Below, in pieces: positions 2,493 through 63,652 of a stretch of 63,809 nucleotides of DNA (positions are counted from its first letter, which is position 1; the number at the start of each line of letters is the position of its first letter). Made by a program: the position numbers and the translations under genes. The notes beneath the pieces are model-generated. The model saw only the letters and a list, made by a program, of their open reading frames with translations, searched no databases and was not told where the DNA came from. This stretch comes from Rhizaria sp. SCN 62-66 (Eukaryota), in NCBI GenBank assembly GCA_001724265.1, contig MEDY01000104.1:124001-187809 (forward strand). Reading direction: 5' to 3'.

Positions 2493-2509
2493 AGACCGAT
2501 GTCGAAACC

Positions 2510-2544
<35 letters not shown>

Positions 2545-32650: not shown

Positions 32651-33215
32651 GGAGAAAGCAAGAGACGCGTCACTATTATTATTTACAATATTAAGTTTGC
32701 TGATAGATTCATGTGTGGTGATTGTTATAATACGATTTGTTTATGTAATTACGTAGAAGAAAATCAATACAATGCTTCAAGTTATTATTCATTTGTACAA
32801 ATGTTCATGAACAGTCCCACAAGCGTCGCTGACTCAGGAGGAAGCACTTACGATGCGGAATGAAGATCAATTCTATATGCACTGATAAGATTCTCCTGTT
32901 AGCATCACTTTCATATTTGTATTACAATGGCCTGATTGTTTTGTAAAATCACATTTACTCACGTGAAAAAATGCATTGTGTTCCTCAATCTTCTTACTTA
33001 AAGCGACCAGACTAATGCTATGTCTGTTTTGCTTTTTGTTCTTGCTTTGTTTTCTTGTAGTTATGGTTGCCATAGGTATCTACTACCTATGACGCTTTAA
33101 CTTACACAAAGAAAGCAATAACGTAGACTTAAGTGTGAAAAATTTCTTAAGCAGGCTAAAGATGCACTTTCTTTAAGTTGTAACTCTTGCAAGCTCACAG
33201 TCACTGGTTCCTTGT

Positions 33216-35514: not shown

Positions 35515-36046
35515 CGACGGCGCTACAGAAGGGGAAGGTAGATCAAGATAAGATGGGATTTCAGTGAGATTTCTTGAGTAATATATAATATAAAATAAGT
35601 CAACAGTCCAATTCCACTGCTATCATTGTTATTGACGGAGGATTGACGTCTGTCGAGACTGAAACGTGAACCCTCCTAGCCGATGTGTCGCTCCAACGGC
35701 TATCGACCGCAGCCTGCCAGCAATCCAAATTTGGACGGCGACCGACCGACCGGCCGACTGCACCGCGGCGCTGTGTCGCGAAGCATCAAAGTACGACTAG
35801 CTGACACGCTTCGACGAGTCCGTTGTTCGTTCTATACTTACTCTTTCTCGAAGTAAATCTCACAATCATGTCTCGAATTTCTCTCATGCACGCCCATTCC
35901 CTTATTATCTCTCTACTGCAGCGTTCCAAGTTCGCCCTCTCGGTGAGTCCCCCCGCAAGCCCCGCTCTTGCTCGCAACCACGCCACCCAGCCCTTGCCTG
36001 GCTCTGTCTTCTTCTGCCGCTGCGTGCCGCGTGCTTCACTGCGCAA
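35515..36046. promoter_or_regulatory. Putative bidirectional promoter between the Mad3-like gene and the 2482-aa gene
   Basis: 532-bp head-to-head gap. Contains TCCAACGGCT (35692-35701) and the palindrome TCCAAATTTGGA (35724-35735). Function is inferred from position only. Confidence 0.45.
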
Positions 36047-42000: not shown

Positions 42001-43495
42001 CGCGCTATCGCTGGGCCACGACAACACCCACGGCGCGCTGTCGGGTATGGCGCTCTTCCGCGCTGCGCAGCTCCCCGTCGGCCACTGGGTTTCGCAGCGC
42101 GCGCTCGGCGCCGCCACGGAGGTTTTCGCCACGCTCGCCATCCTGCTCCGGCTCTGCCCGCGGCCCGCCACAGCCGCACTGGGGCTGGCGCAGAACGCGG
42201 GGCTGCCGCGCGCCTCCGACAGCTCCTCGGCGATGGCCAACGGCATGATGTCGGGCGCGACCTATGGCGCGAGCGAGCGCATGTTCGCCGTCAAGGACCT
42301 CAAGGAGGCGCTGCAGGGCGGCTACGAGGGCTACGCCACCGACATTCTCGCCATTCGGCGGCTGTTCATCGCCGTGGCGAGCATGCGCGGCTTCGCGCCG
42401 GGCGACGAGGGCGGCGGGCTGAGCGCGCTCGAGCTCGGGCTTGGCACGGCCTCGCGCCCGATCACCCACAACAGCGGCGGCAATAGCAGTGCGGCGGACG
42501 ACGGCTGGCTGGCCAAGGACGCGGTGGGCAGCGGGCTGGGCTACGAGGGCGTGCTCCGGCGCAACATCGCGCGCGCTGCCAAGCACGTCGTGCCCTCTGT
42601 CTACGCCAACAAGAGCGCAAGCAGCGAGGAAAGCACCAGTAGTGACGCCGACGCTACTGCTGACTCTGCTACTGGCTCTACTGCGGCTAACACTGCGTCG
42701 GCTGCGACCGCGACAGCAACTTCTGGCAACAGTGCAGTCGCGTCGACCGCGGACTCGGCCATCGCGGCGCATCGCCGATTCCGCACGCTGCTGTCGGCCA
42801 CCACGGGCAAGGCCCGTCTGCCGCGCTCCTTCGTGGTCAACGCGCTGCTGCCGACCGAGGTGCCGCTGGTGCCGCTGATGGAAGTCAAGCCGCTGGACCT
42901 GGGCCCGCGGCTGCGGCCCGTGGAGCTGGAGCGCGTGCTGCCGATCGACAGTGACTCGCTGTTGCGCCGGCTGGTCGGTAAGACTGGCGCGATGGCGCAC
43001 TCACGCGTTCTGCTCACGCGCAGGTTACTCGCGACTGAAGCCCTGGATCCGCGCGTGCTGCAGCGCATCTGCCTGGCGCACGTTGACACGCTTGTGATCG
43101 AGGGCCGTGACCGGCAGGCGTGGCGCGCGCTGTCGGAGCTCAAGCTGCGCGGCATGGTCGAGCCAGGCGCGCTGGCCATGTATGAGGAGGCCGCTAAGAG
43201 GGCTGGGAACGAGGGGCTGTGGCAGCAGAGCGAGGAGAAGGACGAGCGGTACCACTCGCTCGTGTCCGATGAGAACAGCGACGGCATTAGCTCAGAACAG
43301 CAGCAGCAGCTGGGTGATGCTGCTGTTGCTGTGAAGGCGAGTGCCGGCCGGAGCCGCAGTGTCAAGAGCACGAAGCAGAAGAAGGAGCGCAAGCAGGGGT
43401 TCTTCGACGAGGACGAGATTGCCGAGATGGAGGCCTGGGGCAACGAGCCGGAGCCCGCTTCTGCGACTGCAAGCAAGAGCAACATCAACAAGTAA
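36047..43495 (+). CDS. Very large hypothetical protein, 2482 aa, single exon; possible mitochondrial targeting
   Basis: 7.4-kb uninterrupted GC-rich ORF, stop TAA. The N-terminus is Arg/Ser/Ala-rich and almost free of acidic residues. A few PPR-like helical segments; family not securely recognised. Confidence 0.8.
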   Translation: MLPRRGVVYTTNAKSMALVSSFLAAGRTALACPAVNSSSGASTSAVSSRFITSASAALPGAKRDIATAVLLAGPPVARSRLLAPAQQQQLSFIDSNSMLAHSAVLSTPSFAFSSRPSGPGGAGFGSVPGASAGLDSSAAGGPELFRLSQGAGSGSAAGGGTTLGAGHSPASLFKSLYGRSPASLNSSAGASEDQSAPPKPQGAPTMDVSGSFALPFATSDTKDAFGGALGRGEGSYGTLSGNQYLSNMSQQPEHQTREAGSHTPDAGGATSDPSDALLKSMPDAFNHGLYTFRMLMADEHWRKAADAFLKLHKDETLAARLRLPIVVPDTPYAALVQDRLAPEGEEAPLDACGFAAWALEPVASPQSFFPELGWYRYLHSCQNYPPHVRSVLRTPAEAANPTAAPPTLALGYQGSHPLVIFSALASVKAGLRASAALPRDLLRHCLSSDASAQLMAAAPADLLRRFVFAAVDQAEADLAMWSSRLQFLYEEVTTHYREHLRRGGHAPLDAAKHPDAATVYPRGAALVNALYSSDAVPVLRYAPSGAPAYNADLAGSGLFALDALIDTAQAASAHALIVELIALRGVVGGEMEADPAKEVKEANLKQQQQAQSDAAATAEAEAEEEQDEMEGELVSVSPRALGRTAQTGYPDPAPYIDLSTARSAGTEDGLPFRRHAAAIAAVEKELEQARAELAAAKSAAGIGSNISNSSSSDSASIATAADVKPSSAADATEVKLPPKRLHALSSSLLSTLATAAPAVDAEAKAKSDAAAVAAEAAAAEAAAKAESERHARLAALAADDAKQVSVATASARVRAAELTLRRLRVDRVAAFPPLDMFTFGLSPTAYSDLPAQVSHSAAATITATDAAAGGRMSTAQLAAAEAADNAWARESSTGKAGVNSGGEFAFTTASSAVAKSSSNAKGSKAGQNDKEDDALHADELADIELDNNAGSDVFSKVKPHSHGMPMDTPQSNRLKAELVASVKRSLRNSSNNAAAAATDAPAGVADPGHVSLMPAVLPAFDILHNAKAMPEAAASVPAHTPAQALKEADAFFGTAVEFVSLPPLLVTRKGPSVTVSATGVGVGFDPAAASNTAVNTNNAAHTNRGRQHSSSNSSGGAGAGAANAAGGYHTNTASASSSSAGYVPGAASACTKVDDVNNYTAIGFARTDAHYDALRARQQRQRLKEQQKGSNASAVSTDSAASQVTASSEDSEDPSPLDGLVSYPLAHVRQLTESLVAVARQCAEEEHRVTKRHAEAVAKAAEEAAKRQEREERSKRGGLFSRLLASFSGGGNQDAGAATSPDVQPATAVASAEAGAGTESGAESGGGDRTAVLPLPISTGVSSMPGLAGMAVQATNLLYTMAQSQQISDISLEYGDDAAELILDLNELRNMIDFTEEHSEERAVLLQKLAETEAKAAAAPAIYLNKDRSSSSSSTSTGAAVVTSAGGDASSSSADYISVSDVSLPSLRFPSPYQSLTPHPISSACLAGVTNAVLGLSAGARSQFEELARHGLIDFDAQDTAKAGSTGSDESSGSDASAGSQFGVASTQFQSQLHRLMALQEQQFPSLHNSNLNPNSVTTHFNSSASNSSSSSGTATPAGATAVAASAAAASAGRDRSPAAAAADFAPSAAAGDAAGDEGDGEGAMTVNGRTVLQHTVQAVPPADAFPRSSVLPYTSVALAAHAMAVTECYIINLAEATGELVPAAMTYAILTAPGSLLKDHPLMVDRLWAVTNTDDDDAHLLDGLTQNDGLGSETETETEGETATAADKAEAEAAAATAATLAKARRDRAWRAKEAVSSLLSTNHINTPTTATAGAGSIASASASAAPAPAVDAATAHINRAARASTHGHLSRSGVLYYAFKSSRSGMLEAYLEAALIAGSVDPGALNKAAVLWRLATNTTAWHLESKYAPWPCELPGWQPGNIEDVNNTAEGAFAAFMWRQYIGTQSSVSNNNNNGSDSAAAASTQSLSTHGAPVAGAAPSALHALSLGHDNTHGALSGMALFRAAQLPVGHWVSQRALGAATEVFATLAILLRLCPRPATAALGLAQNAGLPRASDSSSAMANGMMSGATYGASERMFAVKDLKEALQGGYEGYATDILAIRRLFIAVASMRGFAPGDEGGGLSALELGLGTASRPITHNSGGNSSAADDGWLAKDAVGSGLGYEGVLRRNIARAAKHVVPSVYANKSASSEESTSSDADATADSATGSTAANTASAATATATSGNSAVASTADSAIAAHRRFRTLLSATTGKARLPRSFVVNALLPTEVPLVPLMEVKPLDLGPRLRPVELERVLPIDSDSLLRRLVGKTGAMAHSRVLLTRRLLATEALDPRVLQRICLAHVDTLVIEGRDRQAWRALSELKLRGMVEPGALAMYEEAAKRAGNEGLWQQSEEKDERYHSLVSDENSDGISSEQQQQLGDAAVAVKASAGRSRSVKSTKQKKERKQGFFDEDEIAEMEAWGNEPEPASATASKSNINK

Positions 43496-44198: not shown

Positions 44199-47100
44199 AT
44201 GACTATTAGACACTGCACCATGACTTACGATATCTTGCGGTCATTCGCAGTTGCGATCTTGCTTTGTCTAGCTGCTCTGTCAGTGGCTCCCCACGTACGT
44301 CCTCTCTCCTGAGCTGCCCCCTTCGATTCTCTTTCACCATCCACTTCTTGATTCTATCATTGAAAATTTTGCACAGACTGACCCTACGTCATTATCACAA
44401 CTCGTTTTCTGCTATAGTCTCTGGTGTCGGCCGCGAGCTTCGGTTCTGAGAAGAACGCCTACGTGGTCTCGTCGGGCATCGGTCTGGGTTCGGCCGTCAC
44501 CATCACAGGCACCATCACGCCCATCGCCGTCTCCTAGCTGCTGTCGACGCAGCGCGTGCAGCTGCGTATCCCCGACGGCTTTCTGTTTACGACGGCCGTG
44601 TCCGGCGGCACTGCCGGCTCGCAGTGCGCTGTGGGGCTCGACGGCGTGCTCGTCGCCTCGACAACGATCCACGCCAGTGAGCGCATCGCGCTCTTCTCGC
44701 CACAGGTACGCCGCGTGAAGACGTATATCCGCATATAGCGGAGTAACATTTCAGTATCATCTTAAATGTGCACACACATATTGTTTATTTCGGTTTCAGC
44801 CAGATATGAGTGAATCCGCGCTCATTATGTTCACTTATACCACTTTGTTTTTGTCATGTTGCTTTGTGCTTCGTTTCCCTATGCCGTAGACGTCCATTAC
44901 GGTTACGTCTCCGTGGTCCTCGTCGCTGACGGTGCAGTGCACGCTGGTGGTAACGCCGCACGCGCCCACCGCGACGACCAACGAGACGCAGACGCAGATC
45001 GTCGACGCCAACAACCAGGTCATCGTTGAGGTCAACGGCGGGTCGCTGCCAGGTACGTTTTCTTTCTTAAAGCAACAACAAAGACGGAGAATCTTTCAGT
45101 AGCCCTTGCGAGGCAGATCAACTGAGTTTTTCTTTTGCGCATTGCTCTATTTTTCTCTATTTTTCAACTTAAAAAAGCTCATATATCTCACTTTTGCCGC
45201 GGAATACCTTTTTTTTTTGTTTCGTTTTGTTCATCGCTCTGCGCAGGTTTCACGACCGTCACCATGGGCTTGTCTTACACCGGCTTCCAGTTCTCGACCC
45301 CCGCCGCAGGCTCAGGCTCCCTGGCCGCCTCCGTCACTGCGATGATTTCCCCCTTAGCTGCGCTGGGCCAGTTCACAGTCTACGACCAGCTGCGGCTGCA
45401 CTTCCCCTTCGACGGCATCAACAGCGGCGGCGCCGCCACGGCGTGCGAGATCACATACAACGGCACTGTCATTGCGACTTCTGATCAATTAGTGGTTGCC
45501 ACGGGCGAGTGCACCGACTGCTCGCTGTCCTCCTCGCCGCCCACAGCCTTCCCGCGCTACCTGCAGCTGACGTTTCTCACCACCGTGTCCATCCCTGCCG
45601 GCGCCACCGTGCCTACGACGACCACGATCGACACCAGCTCCGCCACCACCGCGACCAACGTCTCGGCTATCGCGGACGTCACGCGTGTCACGTGTTCCAG
45701 CGTGACTTTGCGCGCGTCGTCCTCCTCGGCAACCACCACGGGTCTCGTCACCTGGCTGAACCCGTACTCTGAGCTGCTCGCCTACGCCGCCAACGCGCGC
45801 GTGCCCGCGATCGACTCAGCGCCTTTCTCCGCCGCTGCGCTGGGCGCCTTTGACGCACCGGCCTACGCGGGGCTCGCCAACACAGTCCGCTGCTCGCTCG
45901 CGACCTACTTGACGGTCGCGGCCAGCGCGGATCTTGTGATCGCGCTTACGCTGCCGTCGACGTTTCATATCCCTCTCGCAGTCTGCACGAGTCCCTCGGT
46001 GCCGACGCTGGTGAACCCGGGGCAGGCGTTCCCGAACACGCGCGTGCTCAAGACCAACGGGCAGATTACCGTGCTGCTGTGGCTGCCGTTCGCAGTCGAG
46101 GCCGGGGTGACCGTGAGCATCACGTGTACCTCTGTCGGACTGCCCTTTGCCGCCTCCGACGCCTCCACCGTCCCTGGTATGTTCTTATGAGAACAAGATA
46201 CGGCGTGATTTATTTTGGTATTTTGCTTTCATGTTTATTTTCTTCCACTTCAACGCGTTTTATGGTTTTTATGATTGAATATGACGCCTGATTATATTTT
46301 CAATGTTTTTGTTTATCTGCACACTTTTTAGGCGCAAGCATCGTGCTGACGCGTCTGCCCCTGAACACGACGACTGCAACGACCGACGACAACGCGATTT
46401 ACCCGTTCGACGACGACGACGTGTTGGCCTCGGCCACGGGCCTCCAGATCCCCGCCATCATCGCTTACCCGACCACCTATTTCGGCGGTTCCCAGCGCGT
46501 CGTGTCGTTCAAGACGCCCGTGGTGGCCGCACTGACCAACATGACGCTCACGCTCGCGCCCCTTACCGTTTCGCTGAGCTCAGACCGCGTGCTCTACCTG
46601 GCGCTGCCGAACGACATCCGCCCCGACGGCAACGGGACCAGCTCCACGGTGTGCGAGGCGACGTTCAACGCCGTGGCCGTGGCGGGCACCGCGACCATCA
46701 CGCTGAGCGTCGCGCAGCACGTCATCCGCTTCTCGCCGGCCGCCAATACCACGCTCCCGGGCGCCACGACGGCCGCGACGCTTGCTCTGACCTGCACCAA
46801 CATCCGTCTCCCGTCGGTGGAGCGGACCGCCACGCGGCTCACCCCCGTGGGCGTGCTGTCCAAGGCCGACGAGTCGGTGCGCTACGCGTACCTGCGCGGC
46901 GTGCGCATCGACGACATCTACAGCGGGGTTATCGGCACCGCCACGGGCCGCTTCGACCCAGCCTACGCTGGCGCGCTCACCACCTTCGAGCTCACGCGCA
47001 TCCGCGGCACGGACGTGCTCCCCGTCAACACCACGCTCAAGCTCTCGCTGCCCTACGGCACCTCGGCCCCCAACGCCACCGCGGCGTCGCCCGCGACGCA

Positions 47101-50100
47101 CACCGGCGTCACTTGCGGCTACGGCGCCACGCGCGCGGTACGTGAAACCACTAACGCGAATATTTCTCGAAAATACGATTTATTTTTGAGTTAAGTGTAT
47201 TTTTATTGTGTTAAGATTACGATTTTACATCTTCATATACTCTTTGTTTTTTCCGGTCGCTATTTCTCACGACTGCACTATCACCCTAATGTTTCTTGCT
47301 TTGCTCTCTGCTCCTCTCCAGGCTGCAGACGCCATGGTGACCGCCGGCCAGGGCTCCGGCGCGATTCTCTACGACTTTCTGGCCGAGACGCAGCTCATCA
47401 CGGCGATCTCGTTCCAGGTGTTGTGGACCATCCCCACCGAGTCCACCGCCATCATCGCTTGCACGGTGCTTCGCACGCCCGGTACGTGATATCTTGAGCC
47501 AAAGACAAGAAGTGTCATTCGTTGATATCTTGCTGTTTTCACACAGTTGAGAACATTTCAAACTGTTTTTATCGAAGTCGTTCAATTCAAACGCATTGTT
47601 CATCACTCATACGATATTTACCCTTTTCTTGTTTCTGTTTCTCATCACCACACACAGGTTTCTCGCAGCCCGCCTCGGAGCAGCCCCTCGTGGCGACGAA
47701 CCCCGCCGGCAACAACATCGCCGGCGCGACCGTTTCCGTAGCCGCCGTCATCCCGGTGCCCTCCGACTGGCTGCCGGTCAAGCAGGTCACACTGGCTGCC
47801 ACGTCCTATGCCAGCACGGCCGGTGTGGTGGCCCTGGGCGAGTACGTGACTGTGCGCGCAGAGCTGACGCGGCTTAACATCTCGCTGCTGTACGGCGACA
47901 TCTTTACTTTCGAGATCCCGTCGACGATTACCGCGGTCGCCCCGCCCGGCACGACGCTCCCGGGCACCGCCACGGCGGTACCATCGACTATGTGTACCGT
48001 CGACGGCGTCGCCGTGCTCTCCGTCTCCTCGGCGGCGTCGGTACTGTATCCGGACACGCGCAGGCGTTACAGCCTGCGTCTGGCAGCCGCGGCCGCCGCA
48101 GCAGGGGCCAGCGCGAACGTCAGCGCCGTGTACACTGTGGACTGCACGCCGATGCTGCTGCCGACGCACGAGACGGGCAGCCTCATCGACGGCTACATGT
48201 CGATCAGCACGAGCACGCCATCGGAGCTGCGCGCGCTCACCAACGAGGCCACTTTCTCCGGCATCGACCCGCCCGTGCCGGGCGCCGACCTCGCCGCGGT
48301 CACCGCGACGGCGCCGTACTCCAGTCAGAACACGACGCTCACGCTGCGGCTCTCGCCGCTGCCAGTCGCCGCGGTCAACGGCGACTACCTCACGCTGACC
48401 TTCCCGGCCTCGCACAGCTACACCTTCTTCCCCAAGCCCTCTGGCGGCACTGCGGCCGTCAACAGCACGGCTACGGCTTGCACCGTAGCGCGTTACGGCG
48501 TCGGCGTGCCCGCCACTCTGGTCACTCTTCGGTCCGCCGTGGTGCCCATCGAGGGCGACACGACGACCTCGCCCGTGGCCGCTCAGATCACGGTTCGCCT
48601 CGATTCCGCCGTCATCGCGTCCACCGTGGCCGAGACCGCGGACGCCTCGGCCCGCGCGCTGGGCGCGCTGGCGCTGACTTGCTCGCCCGCGCTCAACCCC
48701 AGCTCCGGGCTCGCTTCGGTCACGGCACCCAGCGCCGCGCTGCACCAGGGCGCTACAGTTATCCGCCGCGCTATGACCAACACAGTTGTGTTCCCGGCGG
48801 TCACCACGGCGCCCTTTACGCTGGCCACGACAACCGCGTCGCCCGGCGCCGCCGTGCTGCAGACGGCGCTCACCGACACGGACCGCTTCAACGGTGGGCT
48901 CCTCGTGTACGTATCTAGCTAAAGCGAAGATATATATATTTTGTGTAAAACTTTATTACGGTACTTCTTTTTATTTTAGAAATATTTCAATGTTTATAAT
49001 CTTTTATTAAACTATATATTTTCTTACTTCCATCTTAATGCTCTATTTCTTCTTTTGTTGCTCTGCTTCATCCTCTCGCAGTCGCTTCGCCGCCGCCGGC
49101 CTGAGCAAGGTGGGCGAGAACGCGCGCTACGTGGTTGACGTCTCCGCCCTGTTCGGCTTCAAGACCGTGTCCGAGACGGCCGAGCCCGCAGCCACGACGT
49201 GTCTGTTCCTCAACGCCACCGCAACCACCACTGGGACCGGGACAGGCGCGGTCACCACGGGCAACAACGTCACTTGGGCCCTCTCGACCGGCGCGAGTGC
49301 GGACTTGCAGCGCGTTACGCTTACGCTCCCGGCCTCGGCGGCCACGGCCACCACTGTCTCGACCTTTAACACGACCTCGGGCAACGCCACGACTACCGCG
49401 ACGGGCTACGTCTGGGCCGTGCAGTGCGCCGGCGTGTGGATGCCGCGCTACGCAGTGGCGGCCTTCAGCAACGGCTTCGCAGAGTTCTACCACCCCGCCG
49501 GCGCAACACCCACGTACACCAACACGTCCAGCTCCACGACGACGACGACGACGACGACTGACACGACGAGCGGCGCCGCGTACGCCACAGAGACGCAAGC
49601 GTTCCTGGGTCTCTCCGCGGGTGTGCTGACGGGCGCGTACGGCCTCGTGGAGCCCGGCAGCAACAACACGGCGCCGCTGATCACGACGCCGCTGCGCGTC
49701 GTGCTCGCGCCGCTGCCCGCGCTGCTGCGGCTGGGGGACATGCTCGCCGTGCCCGTCCCGGCCGCGTTCAACTACGTGCAGAACTCGCGCGGCACCACGG
49801 CGTGCACGATGCGCCGCGAGGGCTCCGTCCTGTCCACCAGCACTGCCTGGGAAGACGCTCCGGGCGCCACGGCGACCGCGTCGTGGGGCGGCGCACTCTC
49901 GGCGATCATCACAGTCACCTTTACGGCGACCTCGCTGCCGTCCAAGTCGACCATTGCACTCGAGCTGCTATGCACGCAGGTCCGCAACCCGTCCGTGAAC
50001 CTTACATCGGTGGTCTTCAGCGAGATGCGCGTGCTGCGCACCGTCAACGGCGCAGTCGTGACCGTGGCCGCCACGGAGCAGGGGCGGCTTAACTTTACCG

Positions 50101-51477
50101 CGATCAAGATCCCCGAGTGGGGCACGCAGCCGCTGCGCACGGTCACGCCGGCCTCCACCAAGGCCGGGTCCGCGGCCGGCGAGCTTATGGTGGCGCTGGC
50201 GCCGGTGCCTGTCTTCATCGCGCACTACGGCGGCATCGGCTTCCGCCTGCCTGTGGGTACGTAGCTAAGCGAGATTTATTGACTTTGTTAGAATGGGAGA
50301 GAGTTCACAATTAAATAATATGATTTAAACAACTTCTATGATTTAGATTGATATGACGACGTATTGCTCTATATCTCACAACTTGTACCTTTTGCTTCTC
50401 TTTACTAACGCCTTCCTAGGCTGGAACGTGACCGAGGAAGTGACGTCGACGGTGGCGTGCCGCGCGAGCGTGGACCGCCTGCTGCCGGACCAGGCCAACA
50501 TCTACGGCCAGTCTACTCTGACCCCCGACTCGACTCTGGGGCCCTTGATCTTCTTCCGCCTCACTAACGCGCCGCTGTCGCTGGGGTGGAACAGCGTGCT
50601 GCGACTGTGGTGCTCCGGCGTGTCGGTGCCCAAGACGGTGACGGCGGCGGTGACCAACCAGGCGATCTACGCTTACGACGACCTGGACCAGATCGTCATG
50701 TACACCGAGAAGGCCACTATCCCGGCTATCACGGCAACCGGCGGCAGCAGCTCGTCCTCCACTGCGACCGCCTCGGTGCAGCAGGTGGTCGAGCTCGAGT
50801 CGGGCGCGCTGCTGACCGAGACGCAGGTCACTTCCGTCCGCGCGGCCTACGCCGGCACGCTGGGGCTGGAGACCAAGAACGTCGCCGTCGTCAGCCAGGC
50901 GCTCAGCGTCAAGAAGACCACGAGCACTGCCGACGTTGCTAATGATGTTCACGATATCGAGAAAAGTGCTGCCTTGGTGAGCGTGACTGAGCGCGTTAAC
51001 GCGCTGCGTCACCACCGCGCCGTGGTGGCCCTCGCATTTGCCCCGCGCGCGTCCGTGAGCGTCGTGAGCGTCACCGTACAGGTCGCGCCCAACTCTGTCT
51101 GGGTTACGTCCTCGGACCTGGACGTGCAGCTCGCGGCGCAGAGCTCCGAGCTGGCGACCGCGCTCGCGGCGTCGACTGCGCTTCCCGTGCTGGCGATGTC
51201 CGCGGCGACGGCCGGCTCGTACCCCTCGTCCTGCGCCAACGGCGTCCAGGACGGCAGCGAGACCGCGCCCGACTGCGGCGGCCCCGACTGCGTCGCCTGC
51301 TCCGCCACCGGCTCCGGGTGCGCCGCCGACTCCGACTGCCTGCTGGGCCGCTGCGGCACGGACGGCAAGTGCCTCGCGCAAGGCAGCGTCAGCGCTGCGG
51401 CTGCGCTTGCAGGCGCTTGGGCGGGCGCTGTGGCCGCGGCTGTGGTGGCGCTCGTGCTGGCGCTGGCTGCGATGTGA
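44199..51477 (+). CDS. Secreted, probably GPI-anchored Thr/Ser/Ala-rich repeat surface protein; exons 44199-44294, 44418-44705, 44890-45052, 45247-46176, 46332-47137, 47322-47481, 47658-48906, 49082-50256, 50420-51477; about 1974 aa with one in-frame TAG (44535-44537)
   Basis: Signal-peptide-like LRSFAVAILLCLAALSVAPH|SLVSA. Eight in-phase GT-AG introns (5925 nt). Repeated beta-rich modules with paired Cys, a Cys motif SCANGVQDGSETAPDCGGPDCVAC and a hydrophobic C-terminus. Stop TGA. Confidence 0.8.
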
Positions 51478-51987
51478 GCGTCGATGCCAGTACGCTTGAG
51501 AACTAAGAAGACGCATTTGATTTCTAGTTGCGTATGGATTGTGTTCTGTTTTATCATCTCTACCTTAACATGCTTGCCTTTTGTCTTTATTAGTTTTACT
51601 CCTATTTTATTCTGAAGTTTGATTTTGTGTTGTCCTTTGTCACCGTTGTACCCATGAGGAGTGTAACGCTGTGAAGCTATTTAGTTTCAGTACTTTTTCT
51701 ATTGCATGTGACGAGTCGCATTTGAATTTTATACAAAGATACTAATATTTTGTTTCTTTTAGCTATTGATTATTTCATCTGTTCATGTGTCCAAATAAGT
51801 TCGAGCGCACATTATTCTGATGTTACATGTGTACTACATAAACCAGTAGTACGTACTACTCGAAGTACGAGTTTGTCCAACACAAGTTCAGTTTGAAAAT
51901 CGAGAAACAAGTCAGCCAATAATGAACATAGTAGCCGGTAATAAAGAAATATTGAACACTACACACTCGATACAAAAAGCATCAAGC

Positions 51988-54900
51988 TTACAACATGAAG
52001 CAAATGCTACTGCTGCTGCTATCGCCACCATCACCAGCACCATCACCAGCGCCCGCGCTCGCGTTATTAGTACTACTCGTCACCTTCTTGCGCCACCTCT
52101 CTGCCGACTCGGCCAGCGCCTTGCGCGGCGACATCTCCCCTCTACCGCCGCCCTTTCCCCCGTGGCCGCGGCTGCTGCCGCGTCCGTGCCCGTGCGCACT
52201 GTTGCCGTTGGCGTAGACCGTCGACACCACGGGCACGCGTCCGTTGCGCGACAGCATCGGCGGCAGAGGGATCAGTTTGGAGTCTAATAGAGAAAGCACG
52301 CGGGCCTGCTCCAGCAGCACCGCCTTGTTCCCACTCCCCGCGCTGGCGTTGCTCGCGCTGTTGCCGTGGATGGCCGAGGCGAGCGCGGCGGAGGCGCGGA
52401 CCGAAACCACCGACGCGGTCGGGCGCGGGGACAAGTCCAGGCTGCCCGCCGTGATCGGCCGAGGAGTCGCAAAGCCACCAGTGGACGAGAAACCGTTACT
52501 GTTCGTGTTGTTGAAGTTAGTGTTCGTGCTGCCAAAGTTAGCAGCGGCAGTGTTCGGCCGCGCGCTGTTGTTGTCAACGCGTTCAAAGTCGCTGCTGTTG
52601 CACGAAGCATTGAACTCGCCACTCGTATTGAAGTTGTTGTCTCCACTCCCGTTACTGTTACCGTTTGCGGGCACGTTGAAGGCGGGAGGAAGCGCCAGGA
52701 TGAAGGTGCCGTTGGTCGAGCGCGTAAACAGCGGGCTCGCCCACGGCCTCTCGCCGCCGCTGCTGACAGGGGCAGCGACGAGCTGTGCAGACGCAGCGGG
52801 CCTGGCGCCGGCGCAGTGGCTGTGAGCACTCGGCAGAGGGGCAGTTGAGGCGAACGCGCTATTGCCGTTGCCCCTGCCGCTGGAGAGGGGACTGATGTGA
52901 GAGCTGGTCATGCCGCTAAAGTTCTGCGGCCGCTGCTGCCCTTGCTGGCTTTGTTCCTGCTTCTGCTGGGGCGAGGGCGGGGGCGGCATCGGCTTGACGA
53001 GCTATGATGTGGTGCAGTGATAAACAGAAGAAGAAGTATAAGACATGAGAAGTCCGAGAATAGATCCAAAATTAAAAGCAATAGTCTATCGATTAAAAAA
53101 GTCGAGGCTTTTAGACGAATCAAGTAATGTTCCAAAGCACGTACCTGTCCGTTTGCGGTGAGCGTGTAGCCGGCCCGGAGCGAGGGCGACTGCAGGCGGA
53201 GCTTCACGCCCTCGCAGTTGGTAAACACGCACGGGTCCTGTTCTTGCGGCTGCTCATCGCCGCCGTGCTCGCCACCCTGCTCGCCGCGCTGACCGGTCGC
53301 AGAGCCAACGCCGTGACTGGACACGCTCTTGCAATTGTTGTTTGCGAGGCTCTTGGCGTTATGAATGGCACGCTTGCCGTTGGTGTTGTTGCGGGCAATT
53401 CTGCCAGTTGCTTTGCCGCTGCCGCCGTTGTTGCCATTCTGGCTGTGGGGGCTAAGGCTGTGGCCACAGTGCCTGCAACACTCGCCTTCATCACCATCAC
53501 CACCAACGCCAGCGTTAACAGCTGCACTCGCGCTATCGGGCTCTTCAGCTGCAGTCCCGCCGTTGTTCGCGTCGGCGCCATCACTACTGGTGGCAGTCGT
53601 GCTGCCGTTGCCGTTGCCGCCGGCATTGCCAGGCCCCTGGTCCCAGAGGTGCAGCGCCGCCGCGGCGACGGGCGGCACTGTCGACAGATGCGCCGGCGCC
53701 AGCGAGGCCGCGACGGGCGGCGGCGGAAGCCCTGTCCTGCCGCCGACGCCGCGCGCGCTGGCGCAGTGTACGCGTCCGTCGGCGCTCCAGACCGTGCCAG
53801 GCTTGCTGCCGCCGCCGCCGCCGCCCGCGGAGGTCACGCCTGCACGCCTGGACGCCGTGCCGCTCTTGCCGGGGTCGCCACCGGCGTTGAGGTTTGCGAC
53901 CGCGGCTGCGACCGCCGCCGCCGCCGCCAGTACGGCCGGGGGCTGGTTCACGGCGCCCTTCGTCTTCTGCCCCCCCGAGGCGTTGGCTTGTTGGTTGATG
54001 CCCATCAGCGCATTGAACCCACCTCCGGGGGGCCCAGTGCCACTGAGGCTCTCGCAGTAGCCCTTACAGCTCGCCACGCGCTCGCTCAACACCACAATCA
54101 CCTCGCGCGCCGCCGCCGCCGCGTCAGCTTCGGCCGCCGCGCGCCGCTTCGCCTCCAGCAAATGCTTTTCGAGGGTGTTTTTTTCGGTCCTAGTCGTCGC
54201 GAGCGTGTCCTGCGTGGTGCGCAGCAGCCGAAGCGTGCTGGAGAGCTTCTCCCCGCTGGCCGCGGCGGCGTCTTCGGCGCGCGAGGCCTCGCGGTGGCGC
54301 CGCGCAAGCGCCGCCTTGGCCGTCTCGGCCTCCGCACGGGCCTGCTCGAGCTGCCGCTGCAGCTCGGCGACCTAGGTTGGCAGCCCAGGGGCGTCGCCGC
54401 CGGTGGCGGAGGCATTGGTTTTAGGGATGCTGCTGCCCCCGTTGGCGTTGCTGAGTTTGTTTTGCTGGGGGAAAAAGGCCTTTTCGTGGCGCGCAAGCGG
54501 GGTCGGGCCGGATAAATCGTACGCGTCGCCGTTGGCGTTGTTCGACTTGGTATTAGCGCTGTTGAGCGCCTGGAGCCGCTTCATCGTGCTGTTGCCGTAA
54601 CCATTGCCGCTAGTGCCGTTGGTGGAGTTATTGCCGTGGCTGCCGTCATCGTAGTCGTCGCCGTTGTTGTCGCCGTCATCGTGGCCGTGCGGGTCGGAGT
54701 AGCCTTGGTAGGAGTCTCGCCGCTGCTGCTGCTGCTGCTGTTGCGGTTGCTGCTGCGAGTAGAGCGAGGATGGCAGCATGAGCGGGGACCGACCGGAACT
54801 GGAGATATCGTCGCTCGCCCCGTCCATGTGGTAGTTGCCGTAGTTGTTGTTGTGGTTTTGCGAGTACTCGACGTCGAACTCGCCTTGGTAGAGGTCGGGG

Positions 54901-55778
54901 TTGCTATTAAATCCCTGCGCGCTGCCGCCGCGGTCGGGAGACAGCATAGTGCCGTGCGAGGGGCTGCCTGTGGCAAAGTGGCCGTCGGCCGAGCCGTACT
55001 CGCCAGGGGACGGACTCATGTTGTCGGCGGTGTCGTCGTCGACGTTGAGGTGCGCGGCGGGGTTGCTGCGGATGTTCATCATGCTGACGCTTCTATTGTT
55101 GCCGCCGATGTTGTCGTAATCGTCCTCGGGATACGCCGAGGGGTCGTCGTTCGCCATGCCGGCAGTGAAGTCGAGCTCACTGTCGCTGCGCACGTCGACG
55201 GCGTGGAACGCGCCGCCGTCAGTTCTCCCAACAAAGTCGTTCATGGGTCCGTTGTTGTTGTTGTTGTTGTTATTGCTGATGTCGTTCAGGGTTCTGCGCA
55301 TCACCGAAAAGCTGCCGCTGCGCGGGGGTGAGAGCGGGGACATGGTCACCGATGGCATCTGTCTGGGCGCGCCGGGCGGGCCGATGTCGCCGTCGGTGTC
55401 CGCAGCGGGTGCCGCGTTGGCGTTGGCGTCGCTGCTGCCGTTGACCGTGTGATTGTTGCTTGAACTAGAGGCAGTGGCCGCGGAAGAGACGGAGGATGAG
55501 GGAGCGCGAGACAGGCGGAATGGAGACGCCGGGACAGGGCCCTGCTGCTGAGCAGCAGCAGCAGCGGCGGCGGCGACGACGGCGGGAGGAGGCAGCGGCA
55601 CGGGCGAGATCGAGCCGACGCGGCCAGCGGCGGGAGGGACAATGGGGGACGCGGCCGGGAGAGGCACAGCTGAGGCTGTGCGCGTGAGACCAGGGTGCGC
55701 AGGCGCTGACGCTGCTGCTGCTGCTGAGGCCGCGGCCGGGGCAGCAGAGGCTGCAGGAGCGGCTGCGACGGAGCTCAT
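51988..55778 (-). CDS. Hypothetical disordered/coiled-coil protein with D-box; exons 55778-53145 and 53001-51988, about 1215 aa, with one in-frame TAG (54374-54372)
   Basis: Track ORFs 54372-55787 and 52908-54161 share one frame separated only by a TAG, after which the frame reads VAELQRQLEQARAEAE. Phase-0 intron 53144-53002 (GTACGT...CATAG) joins to the ORF ending in TAA at 51988. Confidence 0.7.
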
Positions 55779-57188
55779 GGGTAGCACGCAGAGAAAAGCA
55801 CTGAGCGTCGTAATCTTAGCCCAGCAAGTAGGTTACTAGTTTACCTAGCCTATGCTGCCGCGTATGTCCCGTAAAAACCTTGTTGTGATGCACTTGAGCG
55901 TGCGGGGATGCCAGGTATGGTAGGAGGAAGGACAATGAGCACGACTGAGGAGTCGTTCTACAGAACAGGTAGACCTTCGCGTCTCGCACAAATAACCTTA
56001 AAACCCTATAAAAAGGGCGTCAATATACACAATTATTGATATTTAGCGCGATGATCAACAGGGTTGGAGAGCGATGCCGGGAAAACAGCTGGAAGGGCAG
56101 ATACTCTCAGTAACGCCTATTTTGAGTCCCTAAGATATCGAAGTAAATAGAAGATTCTATGCATGTAAAAAGAAAAACGAACAATTCACACCGTATTTCT
56201 AAAAAAATCTTTGTTGCAGAGACAACCATAGGATGGTTGTTGAGATATATCCGTCCAAAGTTAGGCTTCAGAGCCCCTTCGCATACGCTCGACACTAACC
56301 AGCAGTCACGTCAGCCGTCATCTCACTTAAGCTTCAAGTCAATAGTAGCACAATTACATCATATCTGGCCAATGCTGGATTCTAGCAATAACAACTTCAT
56401 ATACGCAGGATTGCTTATTTTTACGTGCTAAGATAGCGTCGTTTTGTTATGAATGGCAACGGATTTGTAGTTGTCAAGATTGGCAATGTATTCAGCTATG
56501 ATGCATAATAGTAGTTGACGTTACTGGTGAAGTCGAGCCAAGCAATTTCGCTTGATGTTGCTAGAGCTGCGAATGGTACTAACGTCGATAGAAACGGAAA
56601 TATAAGCTTTGGTTTGAAAAAGAGAGAAGAGAGACTGCGACAGCGACATGACACCAGTGGCGGCACAACGTCGACGACGTTGACAGCGTGACCGTGCGTG
56701 TGAGTGTCGGGATGTTTTGTGGGATAGATTTACAAGCACATGAATGCGCGGACACGCATACGTGGTGAAAACAACAAAAAGATCACAAAACAGCAGGTTG
56801 CATACGGAACGGGGCAGGTCGGAGGCGTAAAAAAAAGAAGAAGCAGATGACAGACAAATGTAAATTAAAAGCAAAGCTCCAAGAGACGCGATGAAGCAAG
56901 CATAAAGTCAACTAAACTTAAATTGATTCAGTGATCACAATTACAAGTAGTCTGTAGATTCGTAAGCACGGCAAGAGCAAAACATACACTGACAACAAAA
57001 GACACAAAGGGAAGTGCATACTCATGAGGTGCAAAGAATACATTGAACATTGTAATCATGCGAGAAGAAGAGTTGTTATGATGCACACAAAAAAGAAGCA
57101 AAGTGAACAGAATAAAGAAACAGATAAAAGAATGGCAGGAACAGCATCAAAGCAATGCGCTGGAGCTGTGGCTGCAGGGGAAATTGTC

Positions 57189-57216
57189 GCACTTAAAGCG
57201 CTAGCGCTTTAAGTGC
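57189..57216. repeat. Perfect 28-bp palindrome GCACTTAAAGCGCTAGCGCTTTAAGTGC
   Basis: Checked base by base as its own reverse complement; lies in AT-rich intergenic DNA. Confidence 0.95.
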
Positions 57217-58384
57217 TAACTTAATGATAGAGTAGTAGTTGTTTTTGTGTTGTGTGTTTGTGAAAATGTAAACAACACTTTCACTAATTGTGAAAGAAGC
57301 ATACACTATCGCACTCGCCGAACTCAAACATGTAGCGTGTGAATAGAAACAAACAAGCACGAGACAAAGTCCGAAAAACAAGAAGCCACAAGTAGCACTC
57401 ACTGTAGGAGCAATTACTAACTACAGGACGAAAATGAAACAGACAAATAAGCAATAGGTGAACAAATAAAGCAAATACAATATGCCCATGTACTTTAGGT
57501 TCGTATACACATTGAACTAATACAGAGACGCTGAGAGTAACAGCGTACACGTTGAGACGTCTCAACACGTGTAAGAACAGAGTGATATGAGCAGAGGTAT
57601 ACAGGTAGACTGCACACGAACATGGCGTTTACATGCGCAGTAGACAGATTGCAGGTAATAAACAAGACAAACTAACTAATCAAAGCAGTAGGTAGTACGA
57701 TTGAATACGCTAGATATGGACTAGAGTTAGTCACACGTCTCAGCAAAATATGAGAAACAACTGCAGTGTAAGAAGAAAACGAACGAAATGGGCGACAAAG
57801 TCGGAGCTGAGACGTAAGCTAAACATATTAGGCGCAAAACATAAAACAAAAAATCGTCGAATGAGTGACATGTACGCGACATGACAAGGCTTCAACGGAA
57901 AACAAAAGTGTGCATATGCAATGCACAGAATTGTTAGAAATAGCAGACTAGTTGCACAGCAAAAAAAAGAAAGGCTTTGTTTGCAAGAAAAGAAAATACT
58001 AGTCGAGGCACGAGTGATCTTGTGCTCCGGACTAGTAATTGACGTGGCTGTGAATGTAGCTGTAGCCGCAACAAGTGTGACTGGTTACGACTGGCTGGTT
58101 TGCTAGTTTGTCGTTTGTTTTGTGATACACTCTCAGTAATATTGTGTTTGGTGTTTGTAGTTTGAATAAAAAAATGTAACTACAAGTTATCTTTGGAAGT
58201 ATGGTTGTTGATACCACTCTCAATGTTGATTCGTTTGATCGTTGTTGCTGATATTACTAAGGATGAGTAAATCACTGCTAGTTTTGTTAATGAATACGAG
58301 TATACGTTTTTGTTGGAGTGGTCAGATAAACAGTGCACGGAAGAGTTGAAGCTTACTTCAAGTTGCTAATACTGTTTAGCGCAC

Positions 58385-61300
58385 TTAAGATTGCGACTCA
58401 GACTGAGCCTGCGACGGCGTCTAAAGCTGCAGCGGCGGTGCCGGCTGTCCGCGCGCAAAAGGCTGTGGCGCTGCATGCGGGTGCAGGCGCACAGGCATGT
58501 GTTGTTGCAGCGTTTGTTGCGACCGTGCCTGTGATAGCTGAGGTGGCGACTGGAGCTGCGCTTGCGACAGAGACAAAGACTGTGAGAAGATCTCACTTTG
58601 CTCGCCAGTACGAGGTCCTTGTAAGGGAGACGGAGCCGGAAACTCTGAGGTTCCGTCAAGAGGCTTCACGGCCGTGAACATGTGTCCGCTGCTCAACTGT
58701 CGCTGCTAATCCGAGTTGCCATCACAAGCGCCAACGGTTTCACTCTGCACATCAAGACCCTCGTTTTTAATGCTGATGTTATTAGAGTGAGTCGTGTTGT
58801 TCGCGCTTGAGTTCGCGTTTGAGTGAACGCTCATGTTAAGATCGATATAGTTATGGTTGTTTTTCTTAACATATGAGCTCAACACAGAGTTAATGATACA
58901 TAGAGCGTCGTCGCTATAGCCAGCTCCAGTAAACACGCCGTCAGCCAGCCCGCTGTTGTTCTGGAGAGCAGGAACAGAGACCGTGGCGTTATGAGCAAGA
59001 GTCCGAACAGCACTTGAGGGACTGTGAACAGCGCTAGAGCTGTCTGTGCTTGTGTTCGAAAAGTCATCGTTGCTGTTGCAGGCATCAGTATCATTATTGC
59101 AGCCATTGTAGTCTTCGCGGTAATGACGCTTGAGTTGACCTTGTCTCTGCAACTGTTGCTGCTGATGCTGTTGTTCTTTTAGACGAGAACAAGCGTTGGT
59201 CGCCTTGCTTGCAGCATCAACTGCATTCTTAGTTCCGCTCTCACAGTCGCAGTCGCACTCAAGAGCAGCGTCACTGGCGGTTTCACGCAGACAGCCACAC
59301 GCACACCCACAGCCACAACCGCAACCGCTGGTTCTCTCCTCATCGTCTCCTGCCTCGGTGCTGACGCTATCACCGTCACCAGCATTGCCATCGTCTGTGT
59401 AGTTGACATGGCAAGAGCTGGAGCCGGCCCTCGGCAGCGCTGTCGTGGCCGTTGTGGCGGTGGTCGCAGCGGGCGTGGACTCCGTCACAGCGGCGACGCT
59501 GAGGGACAGCGGCAGCAGCGGCGGCGAAGGCATGATCGGCGATGACGGCAGAGACGGCAGCGCCAGAGTGACGCACGGTGTGTCAACGCTGCTGCCCTGC
59601 GTGTTTGGCGTCGCAGTGGAGGCGACGCCGCCAGTAGCGCAGTTGTCGGCAAAGCTCGGAGACTGAGTCGCGGAGTCGAGGTCAATGCTAGCAAGAGAGG
59701 CAACGGTGGCGCGGCGCGCAGCACGACCTGCAGTCTCAATGTTGCTACCTACAGGCGTGTTCACGCCGCTGTTCGTGAGGCTGCGGACAATGCTGCCGCC
59801 GGCGTTCGCGCTAAGCAAGTTGTTGGTGACAGGGACAGATAGCGGCTGCGTCGACAACGGCGCGTCGGCGACGCTCCCGTCGGCGCTCGCGTGAGCGCAA
59901 ATCGCTTTTGTGCGGACCGTTTGTTCGTCAGAAGCATGATGCGTGGTGTCCCCAGTGCTGAAACAAGAGCTGGCCGAAGACGAGCGATCATCAGCAACTG
60001 CGGTAGAGCTGATACCTGTGTTCGAAGAGTCCGTATTGCCCTGATCAATGCCGAGGCTGTTGTTGGCTGTATCAGCGTAGCTGCAGTCAGCGTGCCTACT
60101 CCCAATAGCGTGGGCATTTACAGTTGCACTTTTGTCGTGCGCAGGATTGCTCGTGCCAGCAGAAGCGTTGCTGTAGCTGCTATTGCCGATGTCGTCGAGC
60201 ACACACCTCGCAGAGGTCTCGCTTTCAGCCGGTCCCGCCTCGACAGCCGCCGTCGCGCTTGATGCCGTTATTGCCGCTGCCGCCGCCGCCGCCGCCGCTG
60301 CCGCCGCCGAGCACTAAGCCGAGCTGCTAATAGTCCAACTGCTTGGCGTAGTAGCGCTACCACAGCTGCTGTTGTTAACCCTGGTGCTCCCCACGCCATG
60401 ATCGATCGCGACGCTCGGAAGATTCAGCTGCATGTCGAGAAAATCCTGAGCGTAAAACACCTCATCGAGCATGTCGTCCACGCTCTCAAGCTGCATCAGC
60501 AGCACGAGCACGGTGGGTCGCTCAACGAGCTTAAGGCTCTTCATCAGCACGCCTTGCGGCAGCAGCTTTTGCAGCCTCATCAGCGCTGAGCGCTCGTGGA
60601 GGCTGTCGCCGATGGAGATCACTTGCTGCGGGAAGTAGGATGCAAACACGAGCTCGCGCGCGTACCAGTACTCCTCGCGTAGGTAGTGCTTCGGGCCGTG
60701 GGGGCGCGGGGGAGCCTGTGCCTGGCTCGAGGACTGAGCCGGAGACTGACTGCAAGACTGACTGCGAGACTGCTGCGCTGAAGCAGTCGAGCAGCCGTGG
60801 GCGGAAGAGTACGAAGAAGACGCTGACGCTGACGCGGACACTGACGCCGATGACGATTGTTGCGCATGTTGTTGTTGCTGCTGTTGTTGAGCCACCCGCA
60901 GCTGTTGCAGTTGCTGCTGGCGCTGCTGCAGCTCCTGCAAGGCCTGCTCGCACTCGGCAAGCCACTGCTTCTGCGTGCACGTCCAATCGCCCTGCAATTT
61001 GCGCTGCTCGTGGCGAATAATACGGCGGTGGCGCCGGCGCTGGCGTCGGTCATGTTCGCGCTCGCCCTCGTCTTCGCTGTCGCCGCTCTCGTCGCCGTTG
61101 GGAATCGTGACGCTGACGCTGAAGCTTGCGGTCACAGTCTCGCTCGGTCTCCGCCGCGGCGGCTGCTGTTGTCTGCCAGTGTTGCGCGCGCTCGTGCCCT
61201 TGTTGCTGGCACATGCGTTACCGTCGTCGTCATCATCATCGGTGCTTTCGACGCCAGAGCCGTAGTCAGTGTCTGTGTCGCTGCACAAGTCAGCGTGGTT

Positions 61301-63048
61301 CTGGTCGTGCTGCTGCTGCGACGGCAATCGAGGCCAAGAGTGCTGCTGGGACTGGCGCAAGCGGTGCTGAAACGGACACAGCAGCCGCTGCTGGCAGCGG
61401 TGCTGCAGCGGTTGGCGTCGTTGCTGCAGCTGCTGCTGGAGTTGGAGCTGCTCATCATGGAGCGCAATCGGCTGATGTTGTTGCTGCTCAATCGGCTCAC
61501 ATGCAAGGCAGTATGAGTGCAGGCGCAATTGCTGCCGCAGTTGCCGCGCTTGCAGCTGTTGCTGTTGCTGTTGCTGTTGTTGGAGCCGCTGATGCAATAG
61601 TAGTTGCTGTTGTTGCGTGCGACGCTGCAACCATTCAGCGAAACTGAGGCTGTTGTTGTTAGTATGGACGCTGCGTAGACTTGACGTAGCTGCTGCAGCT
61701 TTAGCGTCACTGGTGGTGCCACAACAGTCCTGCGTCGGCCCCAAAGTGGCGCTGCTGCTGACGGTATCGGCGCTGGCTAGACATCTACTTGCAGCCGCGG
61801 TCGCAGCCGCAATGTGACTGGGGTTGACGGCGCTGAGCTCGTTGGCACCGCTCCAGCCGCAGCGGCAGCTGTACGTGACCCAGTCGACAGCGCACACACC
61901 ATCACCCTCGAAAGCAGTATCTGTAGCATCGGCAGTAGCAGCAGCGGCGGCGGCGGCGGTGGCGGCGGCGGCGGCGTGAAGGCGATGAGCGTTCGCAGCG
62001 GTGATGCTCAACCGCGCCCGCGCACTTGCACTTCTGACTGTCGCGACCGCGGTCGCTGAGGCAGTCGCATCCGAGACGCCGCCGTTCGCTGCATCACCAG
62101 CACCAGAGTGCTGTAGCGCAAGGGCCGGGCTCGTGGATGCAGAAGTCCGGGCGGCGGCAGCTGCGGCGATGATACTTGCGTTCTGGGCGGTATAGTTATC
62201 ACTGTTATCGCTATCGCTATCCGTGTCAGAGTTCACTGCCAGAGGAGCAGCGCCAGCCTCGGCGCGAGAGCTCTTGGCAGTCTTCGCAGCGTTACCGCTG
62301 TTGTTATCGTTGTTGTTGTTGTTGTTTTTGTTGCTGTTGCTCGTGCTGCGCATCATACGCAATGTCTCCAAGTCAGCCCTCTCGTAGAAACGCTCGGCAG
62401 CAATACTCTCGTCGTTGCTGCTGCTCGCGGTTACACGGCTGACGGTCGTGTTGCCGTCGTAAAACAGCCTCGAGTCCTTTTGCGTGCCGACCCCGCGCAT
62501 TTCGAGCGCGTACACTTTGCTCATCAATCGCTCCACCTTGCTGCTACTGTCGGTGCCGCTCTTGCCGCCGCCGTTGCGATAGTCGCGGGCACTGCTGCTG
62601 GCGCTGCTGCTACAGTCGCTGGCGCTGCTGCTGCTAGCGCGGCGACTGCCGGCGTTGCCGCGCTCTTGCTGCGTCATCGCCGGGTGTGAGCGCGCGGCGT
62701 GGAAGGCGCACTCGCGGAAACCGTAGATCTTCCAGCGTATTGGGCAGTTGGGAAACATGTGTTCGTAGGCCGCGCGGGCGGAAAAGATGGTTGTGCGCGC
62801 CAGGTATGGCACCACGGCGGGGAGAAAGCGATGCGCTGAGAGTTGGACCCATCCATGCTGCGCGTTGGTGACGATGTAGACCTGTGCGAGGGCGGTGGCG
62901 CGCGCGAGGAGGCGGCACACAACTGTTTCGAGGGCAGCGAGGGCGGTGGCGAGGGGCGCCGGGATGGGGTCAGATGTCGCGAGAGACTGGCCGGAGCGGA
63001 CCAAAGAGGAGGTTGGCAGGAGCGTGTCGTCCCAGTCGAAGATAATGA
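58385..63048 (-). CDS. HAD-superfamily (DxDDT) phosphatase-like protein with a large internal insertion and a long C-terminal tail containing three in-frame TAGs; main exon shown, short first exon tentatively 63309-63291
   Basis: Motif I IIFDWDDTLLPTS, motif II YIVTNAQHGWV, then FSARAAYE...WK and motif IV VISIGDSLHERSAL...KSLKLVERP. Acceptor TTCAG ends at 63049. The frame continues through TAG at 60314, 58706 and 58421 to TAA at 58385. The first exon and the tail are less certain than the HAD core. Confidence 0.75.
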
Positions 63049-63652
63049 CTGAAGGATAGAGACAGAGGGCAAGGCAGGGCGAAGGCGCGAATTTGGGGAG
63101 GGGTATGGTAGGAGCAAGGGTGAATGAGCGATCGTTTGTCAAGGATGAAAAGCACATTGATACAGAACAAAATAACAACGACACGATATAATTACACATA
63201 GACAGTACGGTGACACTAAGTCACCGTCAAAACACACAGTACAATAACACTATTGGAGGCGAACAAAAAGATGGAGACAAGTGGCCTCACTCTCCTTTAG
63301 CAACGTCATTGTTCCGACAGATACAGGAGCGATACACAGCCACAAGGAGAAATATAGCACGGAAAAAATGGACAACTATAGCGGCAATATTATAAACAGC
63401 TTTACACTTCAGAAGCACGGCGGGGCATGTCGGGATATCGAGGCTAAGCAGCAAGACTGGTCCATAACAACGTACTATGAGATGGTGATCGTAGATTCGT
63501 ATTTGGTGATGCGCTATTGCGTCTTAGACACTATTCTAAAGACGGCCGTTTACCAGCCGTCCCTTTTGACATCGTCAGCGTTGTAGGCAGAACGAGATTG
63601 TCTGCTTAACGCGTTGGATGAACTCGAATCGTTCCAAATCCAACATTCCTTG

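Follow-up and report, generated by a model that had tools for sequence, protein, structure and literature searches.

Is the codon UAG a stop or an amino acid in the nuclear code of the uncultured eukaryote deposited as Rhizaria sp. SCN 62-66? The question is raised by a 63.8-kb stretch of its contig MEDY01000104.1 (63,809 nucleotides, nt; the whole stretch analyzed, hereafter the window), in which three adjacent genes, here called A, B, and C, carry TAG codons within their reading frames. An initial annotation, made from the letters alone, had proposed that UAG is sense and that UAA and UGA remain stops. This proposal is supported by three TAGs with solid coding sequence around them, by an ortholog of gene A that is uninterrupted at the corresponding site, and by ten unambiguous gene ends that all use TGA or TAA; it is not proven, with 12 genes in view and gene C possibly ending at a TAG. 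Overall, at least three neighboring genes seem to carry a TAG that is translated as an amino acid, and a code in which UAG is sense and genes end with UGA or UAA is given a probability of roughly 0.7.

In-frame TAG codons, gene ends, and the gene A ortholog

Exon models were built independently from codon scores and comprise 32 segments with a total of 16,610 in-frame codons. The clear open reading frames (ORFs) of the window show a GC content at third codon positions (GC3) of 0.83 over 9,310 codons, which makes the reading frame readily visible; the window itself is GC-rich (0.41–0.72 in 2-kb steps). The modelled codons contain five in-frame stops, all of them TAG, and no TAA, TGA, or frameshift, as the initial annotation had claimed. 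All five of its TAG positions were verified, 44535 on the forward strand and 54372, 58421, 58706, and 60314 as CTA on that strand. Its placement of the five inside coding sequence stood for 44535, 54372, and 60314, whereas 58706 is doubtful and 58421 is indistinguishable from a terminator.

Sites were sorted into internal and terminal ones by composition and not by codon. The 11 gene ends of the initial annotation (six TGA and five TAA) were recovered, and the 60 in-frame codons past each of them have a GC content of 0.32–0.49, a GC3 of 0.30–0.53, and a negative codon score, with the fall in GC completed within one or two 33-nt bins. The same frame past TAGs 44535, 54372, and 60314 has a GC content of 0.68–0.76, a GC3 of 0.70–0.92, and a score of +0.27 to +0.44, and the two other frames score −0.5 to −0.9. 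The peptide contexts of these three solid TAGs are AVS*LLS, LPT*VAE, and SSA*CSA, respectively (asterisks mark the TAG). Ten gene ends are unambiguous and independent of any recoding (table 1); all ten are TGA or TAA and none is TAG, and the last exons of the eight such genes that end within 4364..43495 contain no in-frame TAG. The distribution of codons over internal sites (three TAG, no other) and terminal sites (no TAG, ten other) differs significantly (Fisher P = 0.0035), also when gene C is taken as TAG-terminated (P = 0.011).

Gene A encodes a large secreted, membrane-anchored repeat protein of ~2,200 residues that carries a signal-like peptide at its N-terminus, a Cys-rich module, and a hydrophobic tail at its C-terminus; a Pfam search matched no family to it. 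GC3 around TAG 44535 is 0.85 upstream and 0.86 downstream. One exon of gene A, compared with the full set of 1.84 billion representatives, returned two matches and a single relative (P0022), indicating that gene A is not part of a large family. The relative is a protein of 1,769 amino acids encoded on a single 5.6-kb contig; seven exon pieces of gene A align along it in the same order with 31–67% identity, and its gene has no introns at the corresponding junctions. A metagenome scan for gene A gave 419 pattern matches and two confirmed loci, one of which (L001) is a second contig of the relative's organism that carries the 5′ end of the gene A ortholog. The ORF on this contig runs from the signal peptide onward for ~1,010 codons with no stop and no TAG. 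Both flanks of TAG 44535 in gene A exon 2 align to it (57/97 identical, E = 8e-38), and the alignment with this uninterrupted ORF suggests that the TAG lies inside a conserved, translated region. The residue opposite the TAG is a Ser, encoded by TCG, at a variable position. The remaining ~2,100 codons of gene A, in seven further exons, are colinear with the relative, and without read-through the gene A product would stop ~40 residues past the signal peptide.

Two further observations concern the contigs related to gene A. The ortholog contig (L001, positions 1–3436) is intronless at five junctions where gene A of the window has introns and includes a 5′ leader of ~430 nt. Either this contig represents a transcript, or the relative is poor in introns. 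A database copy of positions 47690–48250 of the window (P0023, 193 amino acids) matches exon 7 of gene A at 99% identity and differs in its terminal residues, which we take to resemble a translated sequencing adapter, in which case some public contigs of the organism may end in adapter.

Gene B encodes a low-complexity protein with a coiled-coil stretch, and its family matches are weak, sub-threshold, and of the coiled-coil kind. TAG 54372 divides a single frame into 486 open codons (~470 counted from the ATG) and 487 open codons; GC3 is 0.82 upstream and 0.86–0.92 downstream, and the other frames score negative. An arrangement of two adjacent genes was ruled out, as the coding bias begins at the TAG itself with no spacer and the nearest Met lies ~125 codons downstream. 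A search for gene B orthologs around the TAG recovered only the window's own split piece (one of 8,000 candidates scored, within the length class covered).

Gene C encodes a low-complexity protein with a weak N-terminal HAD-like motif (E = 0.031, below the Pfam cut-off), and the search for orthologs around its TAGs likewise returned only the window's own split pieces (2 of 8,000 candidates scored, again within the length class covered). TAG 60314 is followed in the same frame by 535 open codons (chance ~3e-8), a stretch that scores +0.22 per codon versus −0.81 and −0.56 in the other frames and that has no Met for ~290 codons. A GCC repeat encoding poly-Ala (60268–60320) is located directly downstream of this TAG on the coding strand. 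Gene C may end at TAG 58706, at TAG 58421, or at TAA 58385. The 94-codon tail past TAG 58706 is open in the gene frame only (P ~0.03 by chance), and GC past this TAG holds at 0.48–0.64 for 200 nt, above the values past all 11 true ends. Past TAG 58421 the GC bins (0.61, 0.36, 0.42, and onward) resemble those past true ends.

Table 1. Coordinates of genes, in-frame TAG codons, and gene ends within the window
Feature	Position	Strand	Remarks
Gene A	44199..51477	+	~Nine exons; ends at TGA 51475
In-frame TAG	44535..44537	+	Gene A exon 2 (~44418–44706), ~40 residues past the signal peptide
Gene B	51988..55779	−	ATG 55777–55779; one intron near 52970–53150; ends at TAA 51988
In-frame TAG	54372..54374	−	Mid gene B
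Gene C	58385..63049	−	5′ limit uncertain; end is TAA 58385 if TAG is sense, else TAG 58706 or 58421
In-frame TAG	60314..60316	−	Inside gene C
TAG	58706..58708	−	Internal to gene C or its true terminator
TAG	58421..58423	−	11 codons ahead of TAA 58385 (36 nt)
Recoding-independent ends, TGA	4364, 8404, 13382, 13848, 33216, 51475		GC and codon score collapse after each
Recoding-independent ends, TAA	7331, 32648, 43493, 51988		GC and codon score collapse after each
Dynein heavy chain	15709–32650	+	~10 exons; relatives named "dynein heavy chain 2" and "cytoplasmic dynein 2" (intraflagellar-transport type)
Gene 2	1433–4366	+	C-terminus matches MafB19-deam weakly (E = 0.0025, below cut-off)

Alternative explanations for the TAG codons

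Assembly error was ruled out, as four of the five TAGs are letter-identical in independent assemblies. Contigs from an independent run (X2) match the window without difference at 44535, 54372, 58421, and 58706; a strain with ~8 differences in 19 kb (X4) has 44535, 58421, and 58706 unchanged; contigs of a further run (X5) include 58706; and a second metagenome contig (L002) shows no difference from the window along 4,585 nt, a stretch that contains TAG 44535. TAG 60314 is bridged by no listed independent contig because the other assemblies break at the GCC repeat. Outside support for this site comes from database ORFs that end exactly before 60314, seen on four contigs; ORFs that end exactly before 58706 were likewise seen on four contigs.

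Hidden introns over the TAGs were ruled out by composition and splice signals. The surroundings of the TAGs have a GC content of 0.5–0.9, unlike the introns of this genome, and no donor-like motif was found within 300 nt of the TAGs except for the two known gene A donors and one GTAYG, which lies 148 nt upstream of 54372 within sequence of GC 0.57–0.77. The contigs of two RNA-labelled runs (X7, poly(A), and X5) are colinear with the DNA across introns (e.g., 44815–45314), are thus unspliced, and carry no information on mature mRNA. They contain no believable splice joints, as the listed joints fall in low-complexity repeats, and parts of the window without cover in these runs were not counted as evidence. 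A shared RNA structure was not detected at the five TAGs (61-nt folds, z = 0.86, −1.98, 0.13, 1.50, and 1.22), nor a shared downstream context (next codons CTG, GTC, ACG, CAG, and TGC), which speaks against structure-guided recoding or editing.

Several observations weigh against UAG as an amino acid codon. The evidence comes from a small sample of 12 genes, all on one contig, and all five TAGs lie in the three adjacent genes at 44199–63049, which hold 4,680 of the 16,610 modelled codons (28%); the first 11,930 codons are TAG-free, and the clustering has a probability of ~0.02 for the three solid sites. It may be due to chance, gene type, or a regional effect. The conserved genes of the window (the dynein, a BUB1-like protein, and a permease) contain no TAG, including the 5,145 codons of the dynein, and the initial annotation was right to caution that no TAG falls at a conserved residue. 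With the GC3-rich codon usage of this genome ~70% of one-step nonsense mutations give TAG, so that the uniformity of the five stops is weak evidence on its own (P = 0.17 for 5/5), and the absence of TAG from ten gene ends has a probability of 0.02–0.2 under an ordinary TAG share of 15–33%. The tail of gene C past TAG 58706 has no positive score in any of the six frames and uses many rare codons; lacking a coding signal, it suggests that gene C may end at a TAG, which would make TAG still a terminator. Finally, no tRNA gene was found in the window by ARAGORN, and there are no Rfam matches in the window or in the ortholog contig.

The gene C tail could be accommodated by a dual UAG that is sense inside genes and a stop near the mRNA 3′ end, or by a leaky UAG stop that is read by a near-cognate tRNA, with UAA and UGA as plain stops in both cases. 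The tail shows no frame-specific coding signal and GC drops past TAG 58421 as it does at gene ends, so gene C may combine a TAG terminator with the internal TAG 60314, and a very rare UAG that avoids conserved genes is expected if the codon is poorly read. Codes in which a codon is stop or sense depending on context are described in ciliates and Blastocrithidia (PMC11687900). A dual role is nevertheless unlikely, given the raised GC past 58706 and the tail that is open in the gene frame only, the lack of a TAG end among the other ten genes, and five TAGs that have neither downstream context nor RNA structure in common. Less likely again is the standard code, under which the TAGs are premature stops and genes A, B, and C either became null alleles recently or are decaying in a fast-evolving region. 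The predominance of TAG among one-step nonsense mutations, the confinement of the TAGs to three adjacent, lineage-specific, low-complexity genes, and a TCG in the ortholog that is one step from TAG all fit this explanation, and since strains differ at only ~8 sites per 19 kb a recent null allele could be common to all of them. However, three of 12 genes would have to be broken by TAG only, with no frameshift, TAA, or TGA in ~4,700 codons; the codon bias is unbroken past the TAGs, gene A retains seven downstream exons with splice sites and 31–67% identity to its ortholog, the TAGs occur in samples of different studies from 2015 to 2025, and no gene end uses TAG.

Correction or removal of the TAGs at the RNA level, by A-to-I editing of UAG to UGG or by unconventional introns, is very improbable. 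The restriction to TAG would be explicable by an editing enzyme with a preference for UAG, and A-to-I editing of premature UAG stops occurs in sexual-stage genes of some ascomycetes. The five sites share no hairpin or stable structure, though, their GC-rich in-frame surroundings are unlike the introns of this genome, and an intron would need to preserve the frame three times. Decoding of UAG as an amino acid is therefore retained as the preferred reading, and the window organism is probably a further case of a nuclear code in which UAG alone has changed from stop to sense.

The amino acid proposed for UAG and comparison with known codes

The initial annotation had named Gln as the most plausible meaning of UAG, which is not supported: the contexts it quoted (NSD*QRQL and LQL*TPSQAQ) are those of the two weak TAGs, 58706 and 58421, which may lie in a 3′ untranslated region. 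There is no support for Gln over Ser, and the sole homologous site points to Ser, the codon TCG of which is one step from TAG. Ser and Gln are the leading candidates. An estimate from substitution matrices combined with the author's own priors gives 0.31–0.65 for Ser and 0.18–0.34 for Gln, but is based on one variable site and proves nothing.

A tRNA with the anticodon CUA would pair with UAG and not with UAA, and an eRF1 that recognizes UAG poorly would be expected to accompany it; the eRF1 gene is not within the window. Such a tRNA would most easily arise from a tRNA-Ser or tRNA-Leu, or else from a tRNA-Gln. The seryl- and leucyl-tRNA synthetases charge their tRNAs regardless of the anticodon, so one mutation there would be enough to turn a tRNA-Ser or tRNA-Leu into a working UAG reader. 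The rarity of UAG (5/16,610) and its location at variable or low-complexity positions would fit a codon that is young or inefficiently read. In a more specific scenario, unlikely as a whole, UAG was captured independently and so far incompletely by a lineage that has no relation to the known cases, most simply through a tRNA-Ser (CGA to CUA), with UAG at tolerant positions only (0.03% of codons) and perhaps still ending some genes. If true, the organism would still be passing through the ambiguous-intermediate stage of codon reassignment.

The known cases named by the initial annotation are in print, and it omitted one, the reassignment of TAG to Ser in the green alga Scotinosphaera sp. (Scotinosphaerales). 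In that alga TAG occurs where relatives have the Ser codons TCC or TCG, and its genes terminate with TAA and TGA (Li et al. 2021, PMC8271138). The window resembles this system in that TAG alone appears reassigned and in that a TCG Ser codon is opposite a TAG at one homologous site. Unlike in Scotinosphaera, where TAG is described at conserved Ser positions in many genes including those for actin and GPI (PMC8271138), that site is a single variable one, and no conserved gene of the window contains TAG. A green alga would also be compatible with the GC richness and the flagellated state of the source organism. TGTAA is the green-algal poly(A) signal, and it is not enriched in the 3′ flanks of the window (13 vs. 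9.3 ± 3.0 expected).

In the rhizarian exLh, the account of Panek et al. (2017, PMC5304391) gives UAG as Leu, with 384 in-frame UAGs in 71 genes (approximately five per gene) at conserved Leu positions and with 56 genes ending in UAA and 15 in UGA; the same source gives UAG as Gln in Iotanema spirale and, for both organisms, a predicted tRNA with a CUA anticodon and a scarcity of UAG in highly expressed genes. The window shares with both, on this account, in-frame stops that are exclusively UAG and recoding-independent terminators that are UAA or UGA, and differs from exLh in having only five UAGs in 12 genes, none of them at a conserved residue. Among phyllopharyngean ciliates, UAG is reported as Leu in three TARA metagenome-assembled genomes and as Gln in Hartmannula and Trochilia, with internal UAGs in 78–91% of genes and with suppressor tRNA(CUA) genes (McGowan et al. 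2024, PMC11687900). As in those ciliates, a UAG-only change appears here in metagenome assemblies with UAA still a stop, but 3 of 12 genes carry UAG, exons are GC-rich, and introns measure 100–190 nt. A UAG-only reassignment is also reported for Protocruzia (PMC11687900), and an oligohymenophorean is reported with UAG as Glu and UAA as Lys (PMC10553269). Should gene C end at 58706 or 58421, the window would resemble the context-dependent codes of Condylostoma, karyorelicts, and Blastocrithidia (PMC11687900) in that one codon is sense inside genes and stop at their ends. Those codes involve either UAA and UAG jointly or all three stops, whereas UAA and UGA have the appearance of ordinary stops here.

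Few nuclear codes give UAG and UAA different meanings; those named in the papers cited are from the rhizarian, Iotanema, Scotinosphaera, Protocruzia, some phyllopharyngeans, and one oligohymenophorean. Such codes are relevant to the question of how UAG and UAA are told apart by eRF1 and suppressor tRNAs, to which a further case, from an uncultured, GC-rich flagellate of engineered water systems, would contribute independently. The rarity of UAG in the window could show an early stage of codon capture, and an origin independent of Scotinosphaera, or an early ambiguous capture, could raise the interest of the case if true. The literature searches turned up no wastewater eukaryote with a described change of UAG, which does not by itself show that the change is unpublished. 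A practical consequence is that gene callers using the standard code split the genes of this organism at TAG, and such split pieces (P0024–P0026) are already present in the database.

Source organism and other genes of the window

The runs that share DNA with the window are bioreactor, wastewater, and activated-sludge metagenomes from several studies dated 2015 to 2025, a distribution that points to an uncultured flagellated eukaryote as the source. Scans of prokaryote genome contigs and viral contigs with a dynein alignment confirmed no misplaced contig of this organism. The window contains ~12 genes with short, AT-rich introns. The nine gaps between dynein exons are 100–190 nt long with interiors of GC 0.2–0.4, and seven of the nine open with GTACG. 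The dynein is strongly divergent, its top non-self relatives being 32–45% identical (21 matches among 7,999 scored), and contains long low-complexity inserts. Neither these matches nor cluster names, two ESM Atlas look-ups, or the TGTAA count assigned the organism to a taxon.

The other recognizable genes encode a Mad3/BUB1-like protein and a xanthine/uracil-type permease, and the remaining genes encode lineage-specific, low-complexity proteins. The C-terminus of gene 2 carries what we take to be an HxE...PCxxC-like motif, and gene 2 may presumably encode a tRNA adenosine deaminase subunit. The spacer between genes B and C (55840–58385), which has no coding score in any frame, is 2.5 kb long with a GC content of ~0.41 and displays a strong excess of A on the forward strand (AT skew +0.27).

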